Under the pieces are notes generated by a model. That model did no database searches and was not told the origin of the DNA. It saw only the letters and a program-made list of their open reading frames with translations. The translations under genes and the position numbers were made by a program. Below, one piece after another: positions 1,782 to 13,505 of a DNA stretch of 13,662 bases. The first letter of the stretch is position 1; each line of letters starts with the position of its first letter. Origin of the DNA: a virus (taxonomy: Duplodnaviria > Heunggongvirae > Uroviricota > Caudoviricetes); IMG/VR virus record IMGVR_UViG_2617271086_000006. One strand, written 5' to 3'.

Positions 1782-3035
1782 ATGAAAGTCGAAATGAATA
1801 CTAAACTTTTGGCCTATTTAAACAATGAGTTACATGGAGTGTGGATAGATAGTGAAAATCGTAATATCCACATAATACTTAAATCAAGCCTTCCTATAAT
1901 TAAATCCGTCTGGTCAGGAGCACCTATCCACTTTTTGGTAGGTTTATCTACTAAAAATATACTAGTGATTGGGATGTTGATTGAAGATAATGTCGATAAT
2001 CCATTTTTACTAGCCTATCCACCAAGAGAGGCAGATGAAATTAAAGGGCTGGATTTGTTATTGTCAGGCGCTTATGATGGTATTCTATTATCATTTTTTG
2101 ACTCGCATACAATGCGTGTTATGGACCTGAAAATAAAAGTTTCGGAAAATTTACCGTGTGAATGTTTAAAAAAATTTTGTGCTAATTCATATTCTCTCAA
2201 TTCAGGATTTAGGGAAGGTAATGAAGCAATGGATGAATTCTGCAACAATGCTTTGACTGGTAACGAGAAAATAATTAGTCTGCCACTAAGTGTAATCGAT
2301 AAAAAATCTTACCTAGCAAGTGTTCATGAACCAAACGATACCGTATTAACATATGAATTTAGCGTCAGTGAAAACGGCTCTGAGGGATATGAGCAGGAAG
2401 CTCTTATATACCATGCTTTGCGGCAGGTCTTTTCACCGGAGGAAGTGTTTTTTTCTCCAGATATTATTGAGGGTAATAAAAAAAGAGAACTAGTTGATAT
2501 TCTTATTGTAGAAAATGACTATGTATTATCTATACAGTCTAAAGCATCATCTTTGATTGAAATGGGTTTAAAATCTCATGAAAAGCTTTGTAGCATGTAT
2601 AAGAAAAAAGCATTGCAAGGGATCGATCAGGTTAAAGGCGTTATCCCAATTCTAAATAATGATGTGGTTATTAATTATGACGGGAGGGAATGCTTAATAA
2701 AGCGCAGAAAGGGTATTTATCATTTAGTGATAATCTCAGATCTTGTTTTAGAGAAAGAAGGTGCTGAAAAGATTTATAACGAAATTAGCAACCTTAAAGA
2801 GTCAAAAGGGGCGAAAGTTTTAGTTATGAGCCTTGAAGGTCTTGTAAATTTTATAAGACTATCAAGATTAAATAAAAGAATGTTTTGGGCAATGCTGGAG
2901 ACTAAATACAAGTTCAGCATAAAAAACCGTACAATTTTAATTAGAGATATCGACTCTAGCCAAGAGAATAATCTACCATTACTTGCCACTGATCAATACC
3001 TATCACTTCTTCGAGGTACGGGAAAATTAAAATAA
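1782..3035 (+). CDS. AT-rich cargo (moron) protein of unknown function with a putative PD-(D/E)xK nuclease-like core; candidate defence or abortive-infection protein
   Basis: 417-aa ORF, visibly AT-rich compared with the roughly 50% GC flanks. Residues about 201-254 show helix EGYEQEALIYHALRQ, then strand ELVDILIV (Asp), then strand YVLSIQSK (Q-x-K), i.e. a D-x12-QxK arrangement as in Mrr/NERD-type PD-(D/E)xK folds. Start may be ATG 1782 or the in-frame ATG 1794. No confident family assignment. Confidence 0.7.
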   Translation: MKVEMNTKLLAYLNNELHGVWIDSENRNIHIILKSSLPIIKSVWSGAPIHFLVGLSTKNILVIGMLIEDNVDNPFLLAYPPREADEIKGLDLLLSGAYDGILLSFFDSHTMRVMDLKIKVSENLPCECLKKFCANSYSLNSGFREGNEAMDEFCNNALTGNEKIISLPLSVIDKKSYLASVHEPNDTVLTYEFSVSENGSEGYEQEALIYHALRQVFSPEEVFFSPDIIEGNKKRELVDILIVENDYVLSIQSKASSLIEMGLKSHEKLCSMYKKKALQGIDQVKGVIPILNNDVVINYDGRECLIKRRKGIYHLVIISDLVLEKEGAEKIYNEISNLKESKGAKVLVMSLEGLVNFIRLSRLNKRMFWAMLETKYKFSIKNRTILIRDIDSSQENNLPLLATDQYLSLLRGTGKLK

Positions 3036-3515: not shown

Positions 3516-3859
3516 TGTTGACCCTCCTGTGGTTGTGCAGTTGAAAGACTCATGCCCGCGCGTTGTTGCCAGACGACCCAGCCGAGAGCCATATCCCACG
3601 CCATGTACTCGTTATCACCGTTTTTTGCTCTCCGACGATCGACTGTTTTACCGAAACGCTTTTCCATAAATAATTCATAGGCTGCGCGTTCATCTGGCTC
3701 AACTTCCAGAGATGCCAGTGCAATCCGTGCCAGTTCTAAATCATCTTCAAGCTCAGCGCGAATCTCAGCGAATGCACTCTGTGTTAAGGCGAACTCAATG
3801 CTCTGCACTTTATTCCGTGCGCGCTCAAGCAGTGCATGGTAGTTAATTTCGGTTGTCAT
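3512..3859 (-). CDS. Hypothetical early-operon protein (115 aa)
   Basis: ORF with ATGA overlaps at both ends (3856-3859 and 3512-3515). GAGG/AGGGG Shine-Dalgarno-like sequence upstream. Acidic, helical-looking sequence with no recognised motif. Confidence 0.7.
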   Translation of the reverse strand: MTTEINYHALLERARNKVQSIEFALTQSAFAEIRAELEDDLELARIALASLEVEPDERAAYELFMEKRFGKTVDRRRAKNGDNEYMAWDMALGWVVWQQRAGMSLSTAQPQEGQQ

Positions 3860-4734
3860 ACCCCTACCTCTTCGAATTTCAATACCAATTGATCACCCCA
3901 GATTTCACATGACTCTGAACACGAGCCGGTATCGAATCGCCTGGCCTGTACCATCGCCTGATACAAATTTCTGTAGTCGCTGTTGGCAGACATTCTGGCA
4001 ATTCCGTCAAGCGTCAGGTGACCACGGTACATAACGTCTTTACCTGTTCTGCGATGACCATCCCTGACGTGTTTGCCTGTAACCAGCTCATTAAAAACTC
4101 GCATCAGACCAGGTTCGTCTTTACATGCAAGCCCCAGCTTTTGCGTTGACTTTTTGATGCAGAAAACACAGTTCCCGAGATGCTCCGGGATTTGCAAATC
4201 AAAAGGTTGTTTTCGCCACCACCGGATAACATCCGACTTATCAAAATCTGACAGTTCGGCAAGATACCGGACGCCCGATTTCGGTTTCAGCCTACGGGGT
4301 TCGTCTGCACGAATACCCAGCCATGTGATGTAATTACCTCGCCCGAAATGGTTATCGCAGTATTTCGTGAAAGGGATGAGTTTTAGCCTGTCAGTACAGA
4401 ACGCGCCGCCGATGTATGGCGTGCCGTACTTTTTAACCATGTCCATAAACGGTTTAAGTACCGGCATTCGCGTCTGAATATCCTTTGGCTCCCATTCTGT
4501 ATAACCATTTGGCTGCCCAAGCTCAGGATTGATATCGACCTGCAACACAGTTAGTGGTATGCCCCAGAACTTCACAACCTCCCGAATAAAGCGGTATGTC
4601 AGCGGATGTTCGCAACCGGTATCCATAAAGATGTAGCAGACGTTATTGCCAGCCTTTCTTTGTTCTTCCATCAGGTGAACAAGATATGCAGATGTTCTCC
4701 CGCCGGAAAAACTAACTACATGAGTTATGCACAT
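3856..4734 (-). CDS. Phosphoadenosine phosphosulfate (PAPS) reductase family protein (PP-loop ATP pyrophosphatase superfamily)
   Basis: 292-aa ORF. N-terminal PP-loop motif VVSFSGGRTS (SGGxxS). GGAG Shine-Dalgarno-like sequence 9 nt upstream. Start overlaps the upstream gene's stop by 10 nt. Confidence 0.85.
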   Translation of the reverse strand: MCITHVVSFSGGRTSAYLVHLMEEQRKAGNNVCYIFMDTGCEHPLTYRFIREVVKFWGIPLTVLQVDINPELGQPNGYTEWEPKDIQTRMPVLKPFMDMVKKYGTPYIGGAFCTDRLKLIPFTKYCDNHFGRGNYITWLGIRADEPRRLKPKSGVRYLAELSDFDKSDVIRWWRKQPFDLQIPEHLGNCVFCIKKSTQKLGLACKDEPGLMRVFNELVTGKHVRDGHRRTGKDVMYRGHLTLDGIARMSANSDYRNLYQAMVQARRFDTGSCSESCEIWGDQLVLKFEEVGV

Positions 4735-7387: not shown

Positions 7388-8062
7388 TTAGGCCTTTATT
7401 GTGTATCTTCTTGGTTTTCCCGAGAAAATCACTGTACCAATTATAGAGCAATTACCGTTAATCTTAATGTAAGGCTCAGGCCAGTTTGGGTTTAATGCTT
7501 TGAGATAACGCTGTGTTCCATCTTCTATCAACCGCTTGAAGGTGGTTTCGCCTGAATCGTGCATCAATGCAATAACGTCGTCACCGTGGCAGGCAGGGAC
7601 TTCAGGATCAACAAAAATCATGTCTCCCGGGCGGTACTCATCAATCATTGAATCACCAATCACCCGCAAGATATAAGTCATTTCGCCACAGGGTACAGGG
7701 CAGGGATAAGTTTCTGCTGTGCTCAAATCAACCTCAGAATAGCCAACTTCTTTCCATGCTCCGGCCTGTACCCATGATATGACAGGGACTAACGTTATTT
7801 GTTTGTTAGTGATTGAAACATCAGGTTTTTTTGTGATGTTCGTGGTCTGGTGTTCTTGATCAAGCCATCCGACAGGCAGGTCGAAACATTTTTCGATGTG
7901 CCTTGCCATGCTGTCACCGATATTTTTAGTAGCACCATCTCCCATAAACCTGCTGGTCTGGGTTGGCTCGCGATCAATCATGGTGGCAAAGGAAGAATTC
8001 CCGCCAACACCATCTCTCAGTTTTCTGGCGTTAGACCGCCGGATGTCATGGACTGTTTTCAT
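7388..8062 (-). CDS. cI: CI-type prophage repressor (N-terminal HTH, C-terminal S24 LexA-like autopeptidase)
   Basis: 224-aa ORF. Ala-Gly autocleavage site (VQAGAW), Ser nucleophile motif GDSM and Lys in TFKRL. Divergent from the cro-like gene. No Shine-Dalgarno sequence close to the ATG, so the mRNA may be leaderless as for lambda PRM. Confidence 0.9.
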   Translation of the reverse strand: MKTVHDIRRSNARKLRDGVGGNSSFATMIDREPTQTSRFMGDGATKNIGDSMARHIEKCFDLPVGWLDQEHQTTNITKKPDVSITNKQITLVPVISWVQAGAWKEVGYSEVDLSTAETYPCPVPCGEMTYILRVIGDSMIDEYRPGDMIFVDPEVPACHGDDVIALMHDSGETTFKRLIEDGTQRYLKALNPNWPEPYIKINGNCSIIGTVIFSGKPRRYTIKA

Positions 8063-8384: not shown

Positions 8385-8948
8385 ATGAGGCTAACCGTGG
8401 GTAAGCATCACTGGAAAGTAGAAAAACAGCCTGAGTGGTACGTGAAAGCTGTCAGAAAAACTATCGCGGCGTTGCCGGGGGGGTACGCTGAAGCTGCTGA
8501 GTGGCTAGATGTAACAGAGAACGCTTTATTCAACCGCCTTCGTGCAGATGGCGATCAGATTTTCCCGCTGGGATGGGCAATGATTTTACAGCGCGCGGCT
8601 GGCACTCACTACATTGCGGATGCTGTCGCACAGTCTGCTGGTGGGGTGTTTGTATCGCTTCCTGAAATTGAGGAAGTAGAGAACGCCGATATAAACCAGC
8701 GCCTGCTGGAAGTCATCGAACAGATCGGGAGTTACTCAAAGCAGATTCGTTCGGCAATCGAAGATGGGGTAGTGGAGCCACACGAGCAGACAGCAATTAA
8801 TGATGAGTTGTATCTGTCAATTTCGAAGCTCCAGGAGCATGCAGCACTGGTCTACAAAATCTTTTGCGCTCCAGAAAAGAGTGACGCCCGCGAGTGTGCA
8901 GCTCCGGGCGTCGTGGCGTTTTGTGTCTGTGGAGAAACTAACGCATGA
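8385..8948 (+). CDS. CII-like early regulatory protein (possibly YdaT family)
   Basis: 187-aa ORF immediately downstream of the cro-like gene. Family assignment is positional and from weak recollection. GTG 8397 with a GAGG Shine-Dalgarno-like sequence is an alternative start. Confidence 0.55.
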   Translation: MRLTVGKHHWKVEKQPEWYVKAVRKTIAALPGGYAEAAEWLDVTENALFNRLRADGDQIFPLGWAMILQRAAGTHYIADAVAQSAGGVFVSLPEIEEVENADINQRLLEVIEQIGSYSKQIRSAIEDGVVEPHEQTAINDELYLSISKLQEHAALVYKIFCAPEKSDARECAAPGVVAFCVCGETNA

Positions 8949-9544
8949 ACAGTTTAACGGCAAATAACCGTTTGTCGCAACAGCTGGTGGTCAGCGTCGC
9001 TGAACACCTGTTGTTACGGCATGAATGCAGATTACCAAATCTCCTGGCTGTAAGTAACCACAGAGAACTTTACCTGACTGTGGGGGGCGAGTTGTGCAGG
9101 AACTTAACCGCTGGTTTCGTGACGGAAGAGGACTTTATGTTCATGTTATTCGTTGGGAGCCAGAAACACAGCGCGTTATCTATCTTCGCAAAGACTACCC
9201 GCATGAGTGCTTTAGTCCTTTGTGGAAATTCAAGCGTGATTTTGTTGAGTGTGAAGGACCACCAGCACATTGATTCTGCCATTCCGGGACGTTACACTGT
9301 TCAGGCACCTTATAAAGCGGGTGCCGGGATTGGCGTCCTGGAATTGATCAAGGCGATATATGACGCGCCAGCGTCTTTTTTATCGTCCGCATTTGCTCAC
9401 ATCAAAGTTATGGTGGGCTGGGCGGGGGCATCGAAAGATGCGCCGGTTTCCTTGATCACCGGTTACGCCAACCCCGTTCAGTTCACCACCAGCGAAATTG
9501 GCGTTTCCGGTGGTGGAAGTGGAACAAACCAGCCCATGAACTGA
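8945..9544 (+). CDS. Hypothetical protein (199 aa)
   Basis: Long ORF coupled to the upstream gene by an ATGA overlap (8945-8948). No recognised motif. A shorter protein-like reading (about 58 aa from GTG 9094) exists in another frame. Confidence 0.5.
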   Translation: MNSLTANNRLSQQLVVSVAEHLLLRHECRLPNLLAVSNHRELYLTVGGELCRNLTAGFVTEEDFMFMLFVGSQKHSALSIFAKTTRMSALVLCGNSSVILLSVKDHQHIDSAIPGRYTVQAPYKAGAGIGVLELIKAIYDAPASFLSSAFAHIKVMVGWAGASKDAPVSLITGYANPVQFTTSEIGVSGGGSGTNQPMN

Positions 9545-9816: not shown

Positions 9817-10045
9817 TCCGTTGCTCCTCAACATTTACCGTTTATTTCAGCGTAAAAAAATATCAACACCCACAGTTGGGCAGTGGTACACCACGCCAGC
9901 AGGGCATGTTCTACGTGTCAGCCTGGTTGACCGTGAATGTCAGAAGGTGATTTGTGAACCGCTGGGCCGTAATTACCGCGTCAGTATGCCGCTTATAGCC
10001 TTTCGCTCCGGAAAAAACATGAAGCATCTCGGAGGTGCAGCATGA
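9809..10045 (+). CDS. Hypothetical small protein (78 aa)
   Basis: ATG 9809 preceded by GGAGGG at 7 nt. ATGA overlap with the downstream initiator gene (10042-10045). Confidence 0.6.
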   Translation: MLNPLLLNIYRLFQRKKISTPTVGQWYTTPAGHVLRVSLVDRECQKVICEPLGRNYRVSMPLIAFRSGKNMKHLGGAA

Positions 10046-10860
10046 GTATGGAGCTGATGGTTAAAGCGATGAAAATTCGAGTGGGTAATCCATTGCGAAA
10101 ACTGGTTCTGATCAAGCTGGCTGATAATGCCAGCGATCAGGGTGAGTGCTGGCCCAGCTACCAGCATATTGCTGACCAGTGCGAGATTAGCAAACGTTCT
10201 GTGATGAATCATATTGCGGCCCTTTGTGAGTCCGGGCTGGTAAAAAAAGTCACCCGGAAAGGTGAAAAAGGTAACTCAAGTAATATCTATCTCCTTCATC
10301 TGGATGGTGCAGGAGATTCACTAGGGGGTAGTGCAAATAATTCACTATCTGGTGCAGCAAATTCACCAGGTAGTGCAGGAGTTGCACTAGGGGGTAGTGC
10401 AGGAGATTCACCCAGAACCAGTCACTCTTTTGAACCAGTCAAAGAACCAGTCAATGAACCAATAGCTGTTGGTGCATCTGCTGATGAGTCTGTGCGAGTT
10501 CGTTCAAACCGACCGGAATACTCTCCGGAGTTTGAGCAGGCATGGCTGGCATATCCCAAACGTGCTGGTGGCAATTCAAAATCTGCAGCCTTCAAAGCCT
10601 GGAAAGCCCGTTTGAATGAGGGGGTAAACCCCGAAACCATGCTGGAAGGTGTGAAACGCTATGCGGGCTGGGTATCTGCGATGGGTAACAGCGGCACACA
10701 ATTTGTGAAACAGGCTGTCACGTTCTTTGGTCCGGATCGTCATTTCGAAGAATCCTGGGAAGTTCCTGCGGTATCTGCAGCCAGACGTGAGGACCCGTAC
10801 TTCAAAGCCAGTTACGACAACGTGGACTACAGCCAGATCCCGGCAGGATTCAGGGGGTGA
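10042..10860 (+). CDS. Replication initiator, O-like (N-terminal winged-helix DNA-binding domain, iteron-encoded linker, C-terminal domain)
   Basis: 272-aa ORF with GGAGG 6 nt upstream. N-terminal HTH_36-like winged helix (LRKLVLIKLADNASDQGECWPSYQHIADQCEISKRSVMNHIAALCESGLVKK). The central Gly/Ser/Ala-rich linker is encoded by tandem DNA repeats, as for ori-lambda inside gene O. Confidence 0.8.
   Translation: MSMELMVKAMKIRVGNPLRKLVLIKLADNASDQGECWPSYQHIADQCEISKRSVMNHIAALCESGLVKKVTRKGEKGNSSNIYLLHLDGAGDSLGGSANNSLSGAANSPGSAGVALGGSAGDSPRTSHSFEPVKEPVNEPIAVGASADESVRVRSNRPEYSPEFEQAWLAYPKRAGGNSKSAAFKAWKARLNEGVNPETMLEGVKRYAGWVSAMGNSGTQFVKQAVTFFGPDRHFEESWEVPAVSAARREDPYFKASYDNVDYSQIPAGFRG
10303..10413. 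repeat. Iteron array (putative origin of replication) inside the O-like gene
   Basis: Four direct repeats of about 19 bp with consensus TTCAC-N8/9-GTGCA: 10317-10335, 10341-10359, 10362-10380 and 10383-10401, at a period of 21-24 bp. Confidence 0.6.
10415..10461. repeat. Tandem GAACCAGTCA decamer repeats next to the iterons
   Basis: GAACCAGTCA at 10415-10424, 10432-10441 and 10444-10453, plus a partial GAACCAA at 10456-10461. They encode EPVKEPVNEP in the initiator linker. Confidence 0.5.
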
Positions 10861-10862
10861 TC

Positions 10863-11357
10863 ATGAGTCTTTTGAATGAAGTTCAGAAATTCATTGAAGC
10901 CCATCCGGGGTGTACTTCCGGAGACATTGCGGATGCTTTTGCAGGTTACTCACGGCAGCGCGTTCTGCAGTCAGCAAGCAAGTTACGTCAGAGTGGGCGT
11001 GTGGCTCACCGTTGTGAAGGGGATACACGCAGACATTTTCCGCGCCAGATAAAGATATCGCCGGAGGCGGAACGGCAACCAGTTCGTGAAACCAGACCTG
11101 TGCGCAATTTCTATGTCGGCACTAACGACCCGCGGGAGATTTTATGCCTGACCCGCCAGGCTGAAGAACTGGAGTCCAGGGGCTTATACCGTCGTGCTGC
11201 AACGGTGTGGATGGCGGCATTCCGTGAAAGCCACTCCCAGCCAGAACGAAACAATTTTCTGGCGCGTCGTGAGCAGTGTTTACGAAAAGCAGCAAGCGCG
11301 CTGTATCGGGTGATGAGTGGTATCTGTCAGGGAATTACGTGGGGGCTTAATGAGTAA
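10863..11357 (+). CDS. Winged-helix / PerC-like regulatory protein (tentative)
   Basis: Trimmed from the GTG start at 10857 to ATG 10863 (MSLLNEVQKF...), 164 aa. The C-terminal segment AEELESRGLYRRAATVWMAAF resembles the PerC/Pch-family motif. Assignment is tentative. Confidence 0.55.
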   Translation: MSLLNEVQKFIEAHPGCTSGDIADAFAGYSRQRVLQSASKLRQSGRVAHRCEGDTRRHFPRQIKISPEAERQPVRETRPVRNFYVGTNDPREILCLTRQAEELESRGLYRRAATVWMAAFRESHSQPERNNFLARREQCLRKAASALYRVMSGICQGITWGLNE

Positions 11358-11967
11358 TAAATATTGCCAGGAGCTGGTGGAACTGCATCAGTGGCGCACG
11401 CCGGACAACATTTTCTGGGGAATTAACACCCTGTTTGGTCCGTTTGTTCTGGATCTGTTCACTGACGGTGATAACGCCAAATGCGCTGCGTATTACACGG
11501 CGGAAGACAACGCGCTGGCGCATGACTGGTCAGAACGCCTTGCGGAGCTTAAAGGTGCTGCCTTTGGAAATCCCCCATACAGCCGCGCCAGTCAGCATGA
11601 GGGGCAATACATCACCGGCATGCGTTACATCATGAAGCATGCCAGTGCCATGCGTGATAAGGGCGGGCGCTATGTTTTCCTGATCAAAGCTGCCACCAGC
11701 GAAGTGTGGTGGCCGGAAGATGCAGATCATATTGCTTTTATTCGCGGGCGTATTGGTTTTGAACTGCCTGCCTGGTTTATCCCGAAGGATGAGAAGCAGG
11801 TGCCGACAGGCGCTTTCTTCGCTGGTGCTATTGCTGTTTTCGACAAGACCTGGAAGGGACCGGCAATCAGCTATATCGGGCGCGATGAACTTGAGGCATG
11901 TGGTGAGGCGTTTCTGGCGCAGGTTCGCCTGCAGGCGGAAAAGCTGGTCAGGGAGATGGCGGCATGA
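11350..11967 (+). CDS. Phage Dam-like DNA N6-adenine methyltransferase
   Basis: Trimmed to ATG 11350 (MSNKYCQELVELHQW...), 205 aa. Catalytic motif GNPPYS. Overlaps the upstream gene by 8 nt and the downstream gene by ATGA. Confidence 0.85.
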   Translation: MSNKYCQELVELHQWRTPDNIFWGINTLFGPFVLDLFTDGDNAKCAAYYTAEDNALAHDWSERLAELKGAAFGNPPYSRASQHEGQYITGMRYIMKHASAMRDKGGRYVFLIKAATSEVWWPEDADHIAFIRGRIGFELPAWFIPKDEKQVPTGAFFAGAIAVFDKTWKGPAISYIGRDELEACGEAFLAQVRLQAEKLVREMAA

Positions 11968-12290
11968 CGACGTTAACTCAATGCCAGCAGCAGGTGCTGG
12001 ATATGCTGATTTCTTATCAGAAAGAGCGTGGCTTCCCGCCAACCAATCAGGAGGTGGCAACCATGCTGGGATACCGTTCGGTGAATGCAGCGGTGGAGCA
12101 TCTTCGCGCACTGGAGAAAAAAGGCGTCATCACGATAAAGCGTGGTGTGGCCCGGGGGATCACGCTTCATACCGCGGTGAAGGACGACGACAGCGAGGCG
12201 GTCGGGATTATCCGCTCACTGCTTGCCGGTGAGGAAAACGCAAGGCTGCGTGCAACTCACTGGTTACATGAGAGAGGCCTGAAAGTATGA
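11964..12290 (+). CDS. LexA N-terminal DNA-binding-domain-like protein lacking the S24 peptidase domain
   Basis: 108-aa ORF. Aligns by eye with E. coli LexA residues 1-70 (QQQVLDMLISYQKERGFPPTNQEVATMLGYRSVNAAVEHLRALEKKGVITI against [51 protein letters not shown]). ATGA overlaps at both ends. Confidence 0.8.
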   Translation: MTTLTQCQQQVLDMLISYQKERGFPPTNQEVATMLGYRSVNAAVEHLRALEKKGVITIKRGVARGITLHTAVKDDDSEAVGIIRSLLAGEENARLRATHWLHERGLKV

Positions 12291-12695: not shown

Positions 12696-13505
12696 ATGAA
12701 TAATCTGATGGTTATTGATGGTATTGAAGTTCGTCGTGATGCTTATGGGCGTTACAGCCTGAACGATCTGCACAGGGCAGCCGGGGGAGAACAAAAAAAC
12801 CGCCCGAAATACTGGCTCTCCAATAAGCAAACCTGTGAATTGATTGAACAACTTTTCACCGAGGGTGGAATTCCGCCTCTGGAACAAAATCAACCAGTTA
12901 GCGTCATTAATGGCGGAAATAACCAGGGGACGTATGTCTGCAAAGAACTGGTGTATGCCTATGCAATGTGGATCAGCCCGTCATTCCATCTGAAGGTGAT
13001 CCGTACTTTCGATATGGTAACCAGCGCACCGGAAAAATTATCCGGGCAGGCTGCTGACAAGATGCAGGCTGGAGTGATTCTGCTGGACTTTATGCGCAGG
13101 GAGTTAAACCTGTCTAACTCTTCAGTGCTTGGTGCCTGTCAGAAACTCCAGGAGGCTGTTGGCTTACCGAATCTGGCACCGCGCTATGCCATTGATGCTC
13201 CTGCTGACGCGCCTGATGGCTCAAGTCGCCCTACGCTGTCGCTGAGTGCACTGCTGAAACAGTATGGTATCCGCCTTACGGCTAATCAGGCATATCACCA
13301 GATGGCGAAGCTGGGGATCGTTGAACAACGCGAACGATACAGCCGTACCTCGATTAACAACATCAAAAAATTCTGGTCGCTGACAGCGAAAGGCTGCATG
13401 TTCGGCAAGAACATCACCAGTCCCGCAAATCCGCGCGAGACGCAGCCGCATTTCTTCGAATCCCGATTCCCTGAGCTGTTAAAGCTGCTCGATACCGTTC
13501 ATTGA
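12696..13505 (+). CDS. KilA-N domain protein (antirepressor/Roi-like)
   Basis: 269-aa ORF with GAGGAG 9 nt upstream. N-terminal KilA-N-like segment (VIDGIEVRRDAYGRYSLNDLHRAAGG...PKYWLSNKQTCELIEQL). C-terminal domain unassigned. Confidence 0.8.
   Translation: MNNLMVIDGIEVRRDAYGRYSLNDLHRAAGGEQKNRPKYWLSNKQTCELIEQLFTEGGIPPLEQNQPVSVINGGNNQGTYVCKELVYAYAMWISPSFHLKVIRTFDMVTSAPEKLSGQAADKMQAGVILLDFMRRELNLSNSSVLGACQKLQEAVGLPNLAPRYAIDAPADAPDGSSRPTLSLSALLKQYGIRLTANQAYHQMAKLGIVEQRERYSRTSINNIKKFWSLTAKGCMFGKNITSPANPRETQPHFFESRFPELLKLLDTVH

Follow-up and report, generated by a model that had tools for sequence, protein, structure and literature searches.

Why should a dense set of short DNA repeats lie inside the coding sequence of a replication gene? 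The question was raised by IMG/VR record IMGVR_UViG_2617271086_000006, a tailed-phage sequence in which the repeats stand within a predicted replication initiator gene. The window (the whole stretch of DNA analyzed, 13,662 nucleotides) is the 13.6-kb integrase-to-early-right part of a lambdoid prophage. In our judgement the repeats probably constitute an origin of replication that belongs to a lambdoid prophage of the SfV/CPS-53 type and is placed inside the prophage's own initiator gene. The evidence is computational throughout, being drawn from sequence comparison and predicted structure. At least 80 related loci were retrieved using protein patterns (from Pseudomonas, Aeromonas, Shewanella, Marinomonas, Erwinia, Xenorhabdus, Photobacterium and others). 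At least about 120 further IMG/VR loci were retrieved with a DNA pattern of the conserved core described below and were used for iteron analysis only. The comparative set comprised about 200 related loci in all.

When Tandem Repeats Finder was applied, two arrays were reported, at 10307-10411 (period 21-24) and 10432-10461 (period 12). The repeat unit of the first array is a 15-bp dyad, GTGCA-N5-T(T/G)CAC, present in five copies with spacings of 24, 21, 21 and 24 bp (Table 1). The initial annotation had described four iterons of about 19 bp in the register TTCAC-N8/9-GTGCA. The repeats are real, lie where they had been placed and are far above chance, but they are better read as five 15-bp dyads. 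The earlier motif has one exact match because the spacers between the dyads are 9, 6, 6 and 9 bp, and GTGCA-N5-TKCAC was preferred for its constant inner spacing, its five copies and its perfect palindromes in relatives. The exact dyad was not found elsewhere in the 13.6-kb window. With one mismatch allowed, 10 matches were obtained against 1.07 expected, a number reached in none of 200 shuffles, and six of the 10 fall in the cluster and cover its five sites. The dyad array is the sole clustered direct-repeat family in the window. Short tandem repeats of other kinds were seen at 4473-4519 (23 bp x 2, in the PAPS_reduct-like gene) and at 12706-12727 (9 bp x 2.3), the latter at the start of the open reading frame (ORF) 12696-13505. 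A match of the iteron region to the Rfam family mir-875 was rejected as spurious, as it is far below threshold and is produced by the iteron dyads.

The dyads are followed by three exact copies of the decamer GAACCAGTCA, at the positions first annotated, and by a partial fourth. As also annotated, iterons and decamers lie in frame within the initiator gene (ORF 10042-10860), where they encode the Gly/Ser/Ala-rich stretch GAGDSLGGSANNSLSGAANSPGSAGVALGGSAGDSPRTSHSFEPVKEPVNEP. The repeats (10307-10453) correspond to amino acids (aa) 89-138, in a predicted disordered linker. When codons were resampled synonymously with the peptide kept, at most two iterons or two decamers were obtained in 20,000 trials, compared with the five and three observed. 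The repetition in the DNA exceeds what the peptide needs, because resampled codons never reproduce the repeats.

The decamers had been listed as a second repeat set beside the iterons. They exist, but they are no side feature: in the putative origin family as a whole, no other element is as strongly conserved as the decamer block. It forms a 37-bp core whose conservation was measured on about 72 loci retrieved solely with protein patterns and thus unbiased as to DNA sequence. The core is nearly unchanged at synonymous sites across gammaproteobacterial phages of many genera. Within the encoded block PRTSHSFEPVxEP, one codon each is used in all loci for Arg (AGA), Thr (ACC), Ser (AGT), His (CAC), Ser (TCT) and Glu (GAA), while Pro (CCA) and Val (GTC) are so encoded in 94 % of loci. 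This single-codon use persists in hosts with high GC content at third codon positions (GC3). A control block around GECWPSYQ, equally conserved as protein, uses 2-6 codons per residue, and the mean top-codon fraction was 0.94 for the core versus 0.62 for the control. Nucleotide diversity at codon positions 1, 2 and 3 was 0.10, 0.14 and 0.11 in the core versus 0.10, 0.06 and 0.49 in the control, and the residual core variation is mostly non-synonymous. The core is also a local GC minimum across relatives, including those from high-GC hosts (0.38-0.44 versus 0.55-0.67 in the flanks).

The core might be a homology patch for module exchange, or might act in mRNA or translation (pausing, frameshifting), rather than serve as an unwinding element. 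It does lie where the N-terminal/iteron module meets the exchangeable C-terminal modules; a conserved TGA occurs in its -1 frame, and its +1 frame ends at a TAG (10463-10465). However, with strong GC3 pressure opposing it, recombination alone cannot keep about 35 bp fixed across Escherichia, Pseudomonas, Shewanella and Pasteurella. The 177 loci with the exact core pattern contain one core each, and although two copies are frame-shifted (L031, Erwinia rhapontici, and L182, IMG/VR), the other 175 share both the gene family and the frame in which the core is read; for this reason a programmed frameshift at the core was given low weight. No RNA family in Rfam matched the region above threshold, no hairpins were found in the core, and folding of its single strands was no more favorable than that of shuffled sequence (z +0.5 and +0.9). 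Finally, GAAYCAGTCA is repeated with the same degenerate position, as a reiterated binding unit would be, and such decamers follow their own iterons in distant relatives, namely Arsenophonus, Pasteurella and Edwardsiella phage-like plasmids. We therefore regard a patch or mRNA role in place of unwinding as rather unlikely. As a separate observation, the copies in L030 (Pseudomonas bharatica), L031 and L182 carry a frameshift in or just before the core and read PEPVTLLNQ..., so that the proteins are truncated or altered; pseudogenes, errors in sequencing and some form of regulation are all conceivable.

The core marks an exchange point between modules. Among relatives, the core with its iterons and N-terminal domain occurs in combination with at least five C-terminal classes that are unrelated to each other, and the next gene, which varies with the class, encodes a DnaB-like helicase, an IstB/DnaC-like ATPase, a Toprim + DnaB_C primase-helicase or a lambda-P-family protein, or is none of these. 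The lambda-P-family gene directly follows the initiator in L046 and Pasteurella; none of these genes follows in the window. In a natural hybrid, P0072, a class-B winged-helix domain is combined with TGCC...GGCA iterons. Its DNA identity to the window is about 99 % from the core (10412) on, with the core itself identical, and 35-75 % upstream; in a windowed comparison, identity reaches 30/30 from 10419. The switch in identity at this place makes the core the crossover point between modules.

The arrangement of array and core is that of the origin of phage lambda. Ori-lambda, which is made up of iterons and an AT-rich tract, is found midway along gene O (PMC7466680). According to earlier work cited there, the pair of iterons closest to the tract is enough in vitro, and O binds single-stranded DNA that is AT-rich (PMC7466680). 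In the lambda sequence we observed four 18-bp iterons, ATCCCTCAAAACGAGGGA, with spacings of 20, 24 and 23 bp. As in ori-lambda (lambda and the Stx phages 933W and P27), the candidate origin of the window is located in mid-initiator gene, in the inter-domain linker; dyad iterons, at least four in number, stand about two helical turns apart and are followed on the same side by a tract of lower GC; the N-terminal domain and iterons form one specificity module with the C-terminal domain separate, and the iteron number varies. It differs in that the iterons are 15-bp GTGCA-N5-TTCAC instead of the 18-bp lambda unit, that the flank is a sequence-invariant decamer block instead of a highly AT-rich tract, and that the initiator is outside Phage_rep_O and is followed by PerC-like and Dam genes, not by P.

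This shared layout bears on a second alternative, in which the dyads bind the winged-helix protein for autoregulation, copy control or handcuffing, and replication starts elsewhere in the phage. Plasmid iterons commonly serve both replication and control roles, the window is only 13.6 kb of the prophage so that other candidate origins are possible, and the core is not strongly AT-rich. On the other hand, no other repeat array is present in the early region of the window, the sites are within the gene and not at its promoter, and an array with a conserved lower-GC block at a fixed distance is the ori-lambda plan. We consider a purely regulatory array improbable. Between 9900 and 11000 no promoter was predicted, and terminator prediction gave one weak minus-strand site, at chance level. 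GATC sites are not clustered near the putative origin; the interval 10136-10734 has none, which is not significant.

The iterons of relatives were then compared in one fixed register relative to the core. GTGCA-N5-TKCAC is kept from E. coli to Pseudomonas and Aeromonas where the recognition helix resembles that of the window. In the Pseudomonas relatives the spacings are 23 and 22 bp, which puts one unit in another reading frame, where it encodes VQ(Q/E)IHQ instead of (G/S)AGDS(L/P). Two or three reading frames are used in 52 of 140 arrays. In 130 of 134 arrays a distance of 24 bp separates the final two units, and the final unit stops 2 nt short of the core AGAA in nearly all arrays whose de novo consensus had that register. 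Ahead of this unit, most arrays carry NAGGGGGTR and others NACCCCCTR as the spacer, whatever the iteron class. A G5 or C5 spacer, encoding Gly-Gly or Pro-Pro, makes sense only at the DNA level, and the tract can be viewed as a conserved structural feature of the array. From these comparisons the iterons are evidently selected as DNA, not for the peptide. That the repeats are instead a slippage by-product of a low-complexity Gly/Ser/Ala linker, DNA without a function of its own, is hardly credible, for although the linker is predicted to be disordered and repeat number differs widely among close relatives (242-302 aa, with length differences confined to the repeat linker and about 1-2 to about 9 units), the motif is kept across reading frames with unrelated peptides, synonymous positions are fixed, dyad symmetry is kept in all classes but one (IDRSTVR[KR]HI, see below), the spacers are G5 or C5, and the register of the array relative to the core is fixed.

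The iteron class follows the recognition helix, and within a class all copies share the consensus. Helix IS[KR]RSVMNH[IV] goes with GTGCA-N5-TTCAC, ISKRSVMRHI with GTGAC-ACAGA-GTCAC, ISERSVQNHI with GTGCA-N5-TGCAC, CSK[ST]AVRxHI with TGCC-N7-GGCA, and I[GAS]RSTVKxH[IV] with GGGC(A/G)G...GCCC or AACC; helix IDRSTVR[KR]HI is paired with GTAGGCCCAGAAAGCA, which has no clear dyad. In all classes except the last, the outer 4-5 bases of the half-sites are complementary and the central five bases are free, which fits a dimer whose contacts lie in two major grooves, about 10 bp from one another. The proposal of the initial annotation that this is an iteron origin within the initiator gene, with the iterons as putative initiator binding sites, thus gains strong comparative support from cross-frame conservation, co-variation with the helix and position in the linker.

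The initiator itself (272 aa) matches Pfam HTH_36 (PF13730) at aa 17-67 (1.8e-11; 44.1 bits against a cut-off of 25), which places it in that family, and PHROG 270 'replication initiation protein' over aa 3-271 (2.1e-88). A search for related proteins returned 5430 cluster representatives at E<=1e-5. The initiator had been called 'O-like', and this holds for the architecture but not for the family. PF04492 (Phage_rep_O) gave no match to the initiator even at E<=10, whereas lambda O scores 5.7e-36, and BLASTP similarity to lambda O was not significant; by these searches the predicted initiator is outside the lambda-O family. The Rep_3 profile did not match the initiator, a PDB sequence search returned nothing relevant, and NCBIfam held no informative model for it. 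In an AlphaFold2 model built on a shallow alignment (27 close sequences), the N-terminal winged helix is followed by a linker predicted to be disordered at aa 92-157 (predicted local distance difference test, pLDDT, below 50) and by a four-helix C-terminal domain of moderate confidence (helices at 162-229, pLDDT about 60-80). Foldseek with this model found generic winged-helix folds only, among them DnaD-N 2v79 at an E-value of about 0.07, and nothing for the C-terminal domain, for which no Pfam match was found either. DnaD_N (PF21984) scored 24.3 bits, the cut-off being 27. The C-terminus matches PHROG 26426 'replication protein' and, without a Pfam match, carries the label of PHROG 1701 'DnaD-like helicase loader'; it is presumed to recruit the replisome or a helicase.

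We propose that dimers of the initiator would bind the five dyad iterons through the N-terminal winged-helix domain. The iterons are about two helical turns apart, and together they would build a wrapped nucleoprotein complex resembling the 'O-some'; the duplex would open at the 37-bp core, which abuts the last iteron at a fixed distance. The C-terminal domain would then bring the host helicase, either directly or through DnaC. Binding of the iterons by the initiator, unwinding of the core and recruitment of DnaB in what would be an 'initiator-only' version of the lambda scheme are the steps that we infer.

Several points weigh against an origin at this place. No DnaA boxes were found, and no gene for a helicase or helicase loader (P, DnaC, DnaB) is present anywhere in the window. 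Our literature search found no experiments on members of this initiator family. In PLSDB, no small plasmid has this initiator as its replicon; the matches there are phage-sized 'plasmids' of about 25-54 kb, larger replicons and two chromosome-sized records. The core is only about 60 % AT, far below the lambda tract. The IMG/VR loci cannot be used to gauge core conservation because they were retrieved by the core pattern itself. The correlation between helix and iteron may partly reflect linkage, because the two are adjacent; function is argued for by the fact that all copies change in concert and keep their symmetry. Lastly, the conservation of the core is beyond the needs of a generic unwinding element, so that the core probably has a specific ligand, for which a conserved host factor or the part of the initiator that does not vary is suggested.

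We tentatively offer, as a possibility with somewhat less than an even chance, that the core is a sequence-specific 'origin core' of a large gammaproteobacterial phage family, which either a conserved host factor or the invariant face of the winged-helix initiator would recognize, perhaps in single-stranded form, and that it is also the crossover point for swapping origin specificity. A shared, recognized core of this kind would explain why synonymous sites are frozen whatever the iteron specificity or helicase-recruitment module. If this is true, phages would have in the core an equivalent of the oriC 13-mers or DnaA-trio elements, and it would provide a tag by which origins could be located in thousands of prophages. 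Independently of its ligand, the core is a clear case of nucleotide-level constraint on coding DNA and a testable candidate opening site, and it can be used as a search tag for putative origins in gammaproteobacterial prophages.

The candidate origin was also compared with other known systems. Iteron plasmids (F, R6K, pSC101, RK2) likewise have direct-repeat initiator sites beside an unwinding region with short direct repeats (13-mers), and winged-helix initiators. The window differs from them in that it has no Rep_3 two-winged-helix initiator and no DnaA box, its putative origin is intragenic, and no plasmid replicon was found. In some iteron plasmids, Rep is said to bind one strand of the unwinding element (reportedly in work of Wegrzyn et al. 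from 2014). The closest known relatives are SfV orf39 and the replication genes of Stx2c phages, which are the same gene as in the window: the 1.6 kb around the repeats show 96.5-97 % DNA identity to Shigella phage SfV and to many Stx2c-converting phages. In K-12-type E. coli genomes, yfdO of CPS-53 (KpLE1) matches the last ~76 bp of the initiator gene (query 744-819) and lies next to yfdN (PerC family). As the K-12 match is limited to these ~76 bp, yfdO appears to be a remnant of the initiator gene without winged-helix domain, iterons and core. Like CPS-53, the window also has yfdQ-like (DUF2303) and yfdR-like genes.

An origin inside the initiator gene is of the classical kind. For the initiator family of the window, only descriptions of gene content were found. 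HTH_36 proteins of the Stx-phage 'Eru' replication regions (Eru5/6/8/11/13) are catalogued in PMC8951638. The SfV and Eru descriptions concern gene content only: neither of the two Eru papers contains the word 'iteron', and no origin annotation was found in the SfV and Stx2c records. No description of this origin was found in the literature on initiator-solo modules, SfV orf39, Eru, HTH_36/iteron or yfdO/CPS-53, although subscription journals were mostly uncovered and an earlier account is possible. A review by Weigel and Seitz from 2006 may list SfV among 'initiator-solo' modules. The initiator gene is present at 80 % coverage or more in 897 of 5426 complete E. coli genomes. A likely origin is thereby located for a prophage type carried by about one in six such genomes, in addition to SfV and Stx2c-converting phages. 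The pairing of helices with iterons can also be used to study or engineer winged-helix specificity, an example being the change of Asn to Arg in the helix, which is accompanied by GTGAC in place of GTGCA in the iteron.

Table 1 Features of the putative origin, the initiator and the neighboring genes in the window
Feature	Position	Strand	Remark
Integrase gene	386-1609
Low-GC ORF after integrase	1782-3035	+	417 aa; GC 0.32-0.38 versus 0.45-0.55 elsewhere
PAPS_reduct-domain ORF	3856-4734	-
yfdQ-like (DUF2303) and yfdR-like genes			Leftward, between low-GC ORF and cI
cI	7388-8062	-	Followed by a cro-like gene
cII-like gene	8385-8948
Ash-domain gene	8945-9544		Followed by two small ORFs up to the initiator
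Initiator gene	10042-10860	+	272 aa; counterpart of SfV orf39 'replication protein'
Winged helix-turn-helix domain, N-terminal	10042-10302	+	aa 1-87; AlphaFold2 block with pLDDT 74-94 over aa 1-90
Recognition helix	aa 51-64		KRSVMNHIAALCES
Beta-hairpin wing	aa 67-85
Iteron 1	10307-10321		GTGCAGGAGATTCAC
9-bp spacer	10322-10330		TAGGGGGTA; G5 tract 10324-10328; 24-bp spacing
Iteron 2	10331-10345		GTGCAAATAATTCAC
Iteron 3	10352-10366		GTGCAGCAAATTCAC
Iteron 4	10373-10387		GTGCAGGAGTTGCAC; perfect outer dyad GTGCA/TGCAC
Second 9-bp spacer	10388-10396		TAGGGGGTA; G5 tract 10390-10394; ahead of last iteron
Iteron 5	10397-10411		GTGCAGGAGATTCAC
Conserved core of the putative origin	10412-10448		CCAGAACCAGTCACTCTTTTGAACCAGTCAAAGAACC (= decamer block CCAGAACCAGTCACTCTTTTGAACCAGTCAAnGAACC); encodes (P)RTSHSFEPVKEP
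Decamer 1	10415-10424	+	GAACCAGTCA
Decamer 2	10432-10441	+	GAACCAGTCA
Decamer 3	10444-10453	+	GAACCAGTCA; family-wide conservation limited to first five bases
Partial fourth decamer	10456-10465		GAACCAATAG
C-terminal helical domain	10519-10857	+	aa 160-272
PerC-family (yfdN-like) gene	10857-11357	+	GTG start overlaps initiator stop codon
Dam gene	11317-11967		Pfam Dam match 4e-43
LexA-like gene	11964-12290	+	108 aa; LexA DNA-binding domain without peptidase domain

The initiator gene belongs to the early-right operon, in which the genes are ordered cI, cro-like, cII-like, Ash, orf38, initiator, PerC, Dam, LexA-like and RusA (Table 1). The PerC-like gene occupies the place held by gene P in lambda, and the LexA-like gene, whose SfV counterpart is orf42, sits between Dam and RusA. 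In the SfV record (NC_003444, 5552-6205), RefSeq names the dam product 'phosphoadenosine phosphosulfate reductase', although its counterpart in the window matches Pfam Dam (4e-43); this is probably a product-name error. The 417-aa ORF behind the integrase gene had no match in Pfam or PADLOC; a role as accessory or 'moron' gene is possible, with a membrane or O-antigen-modification protein of the sort known in SfV-type phages as one example. PADLOC likewise returned nothing for the ORFs of unknown function nearby.

In some E. coli entries (P0047-P0050, P0075 and H58) the first ~70-79 % of the initiator is fused to a RusA domain. The fusion proteins have 275-297 aa and match both HTH_36 and RusA, which suggests that PerC, Dam and the LexA-like gene were deleted in some prophages.

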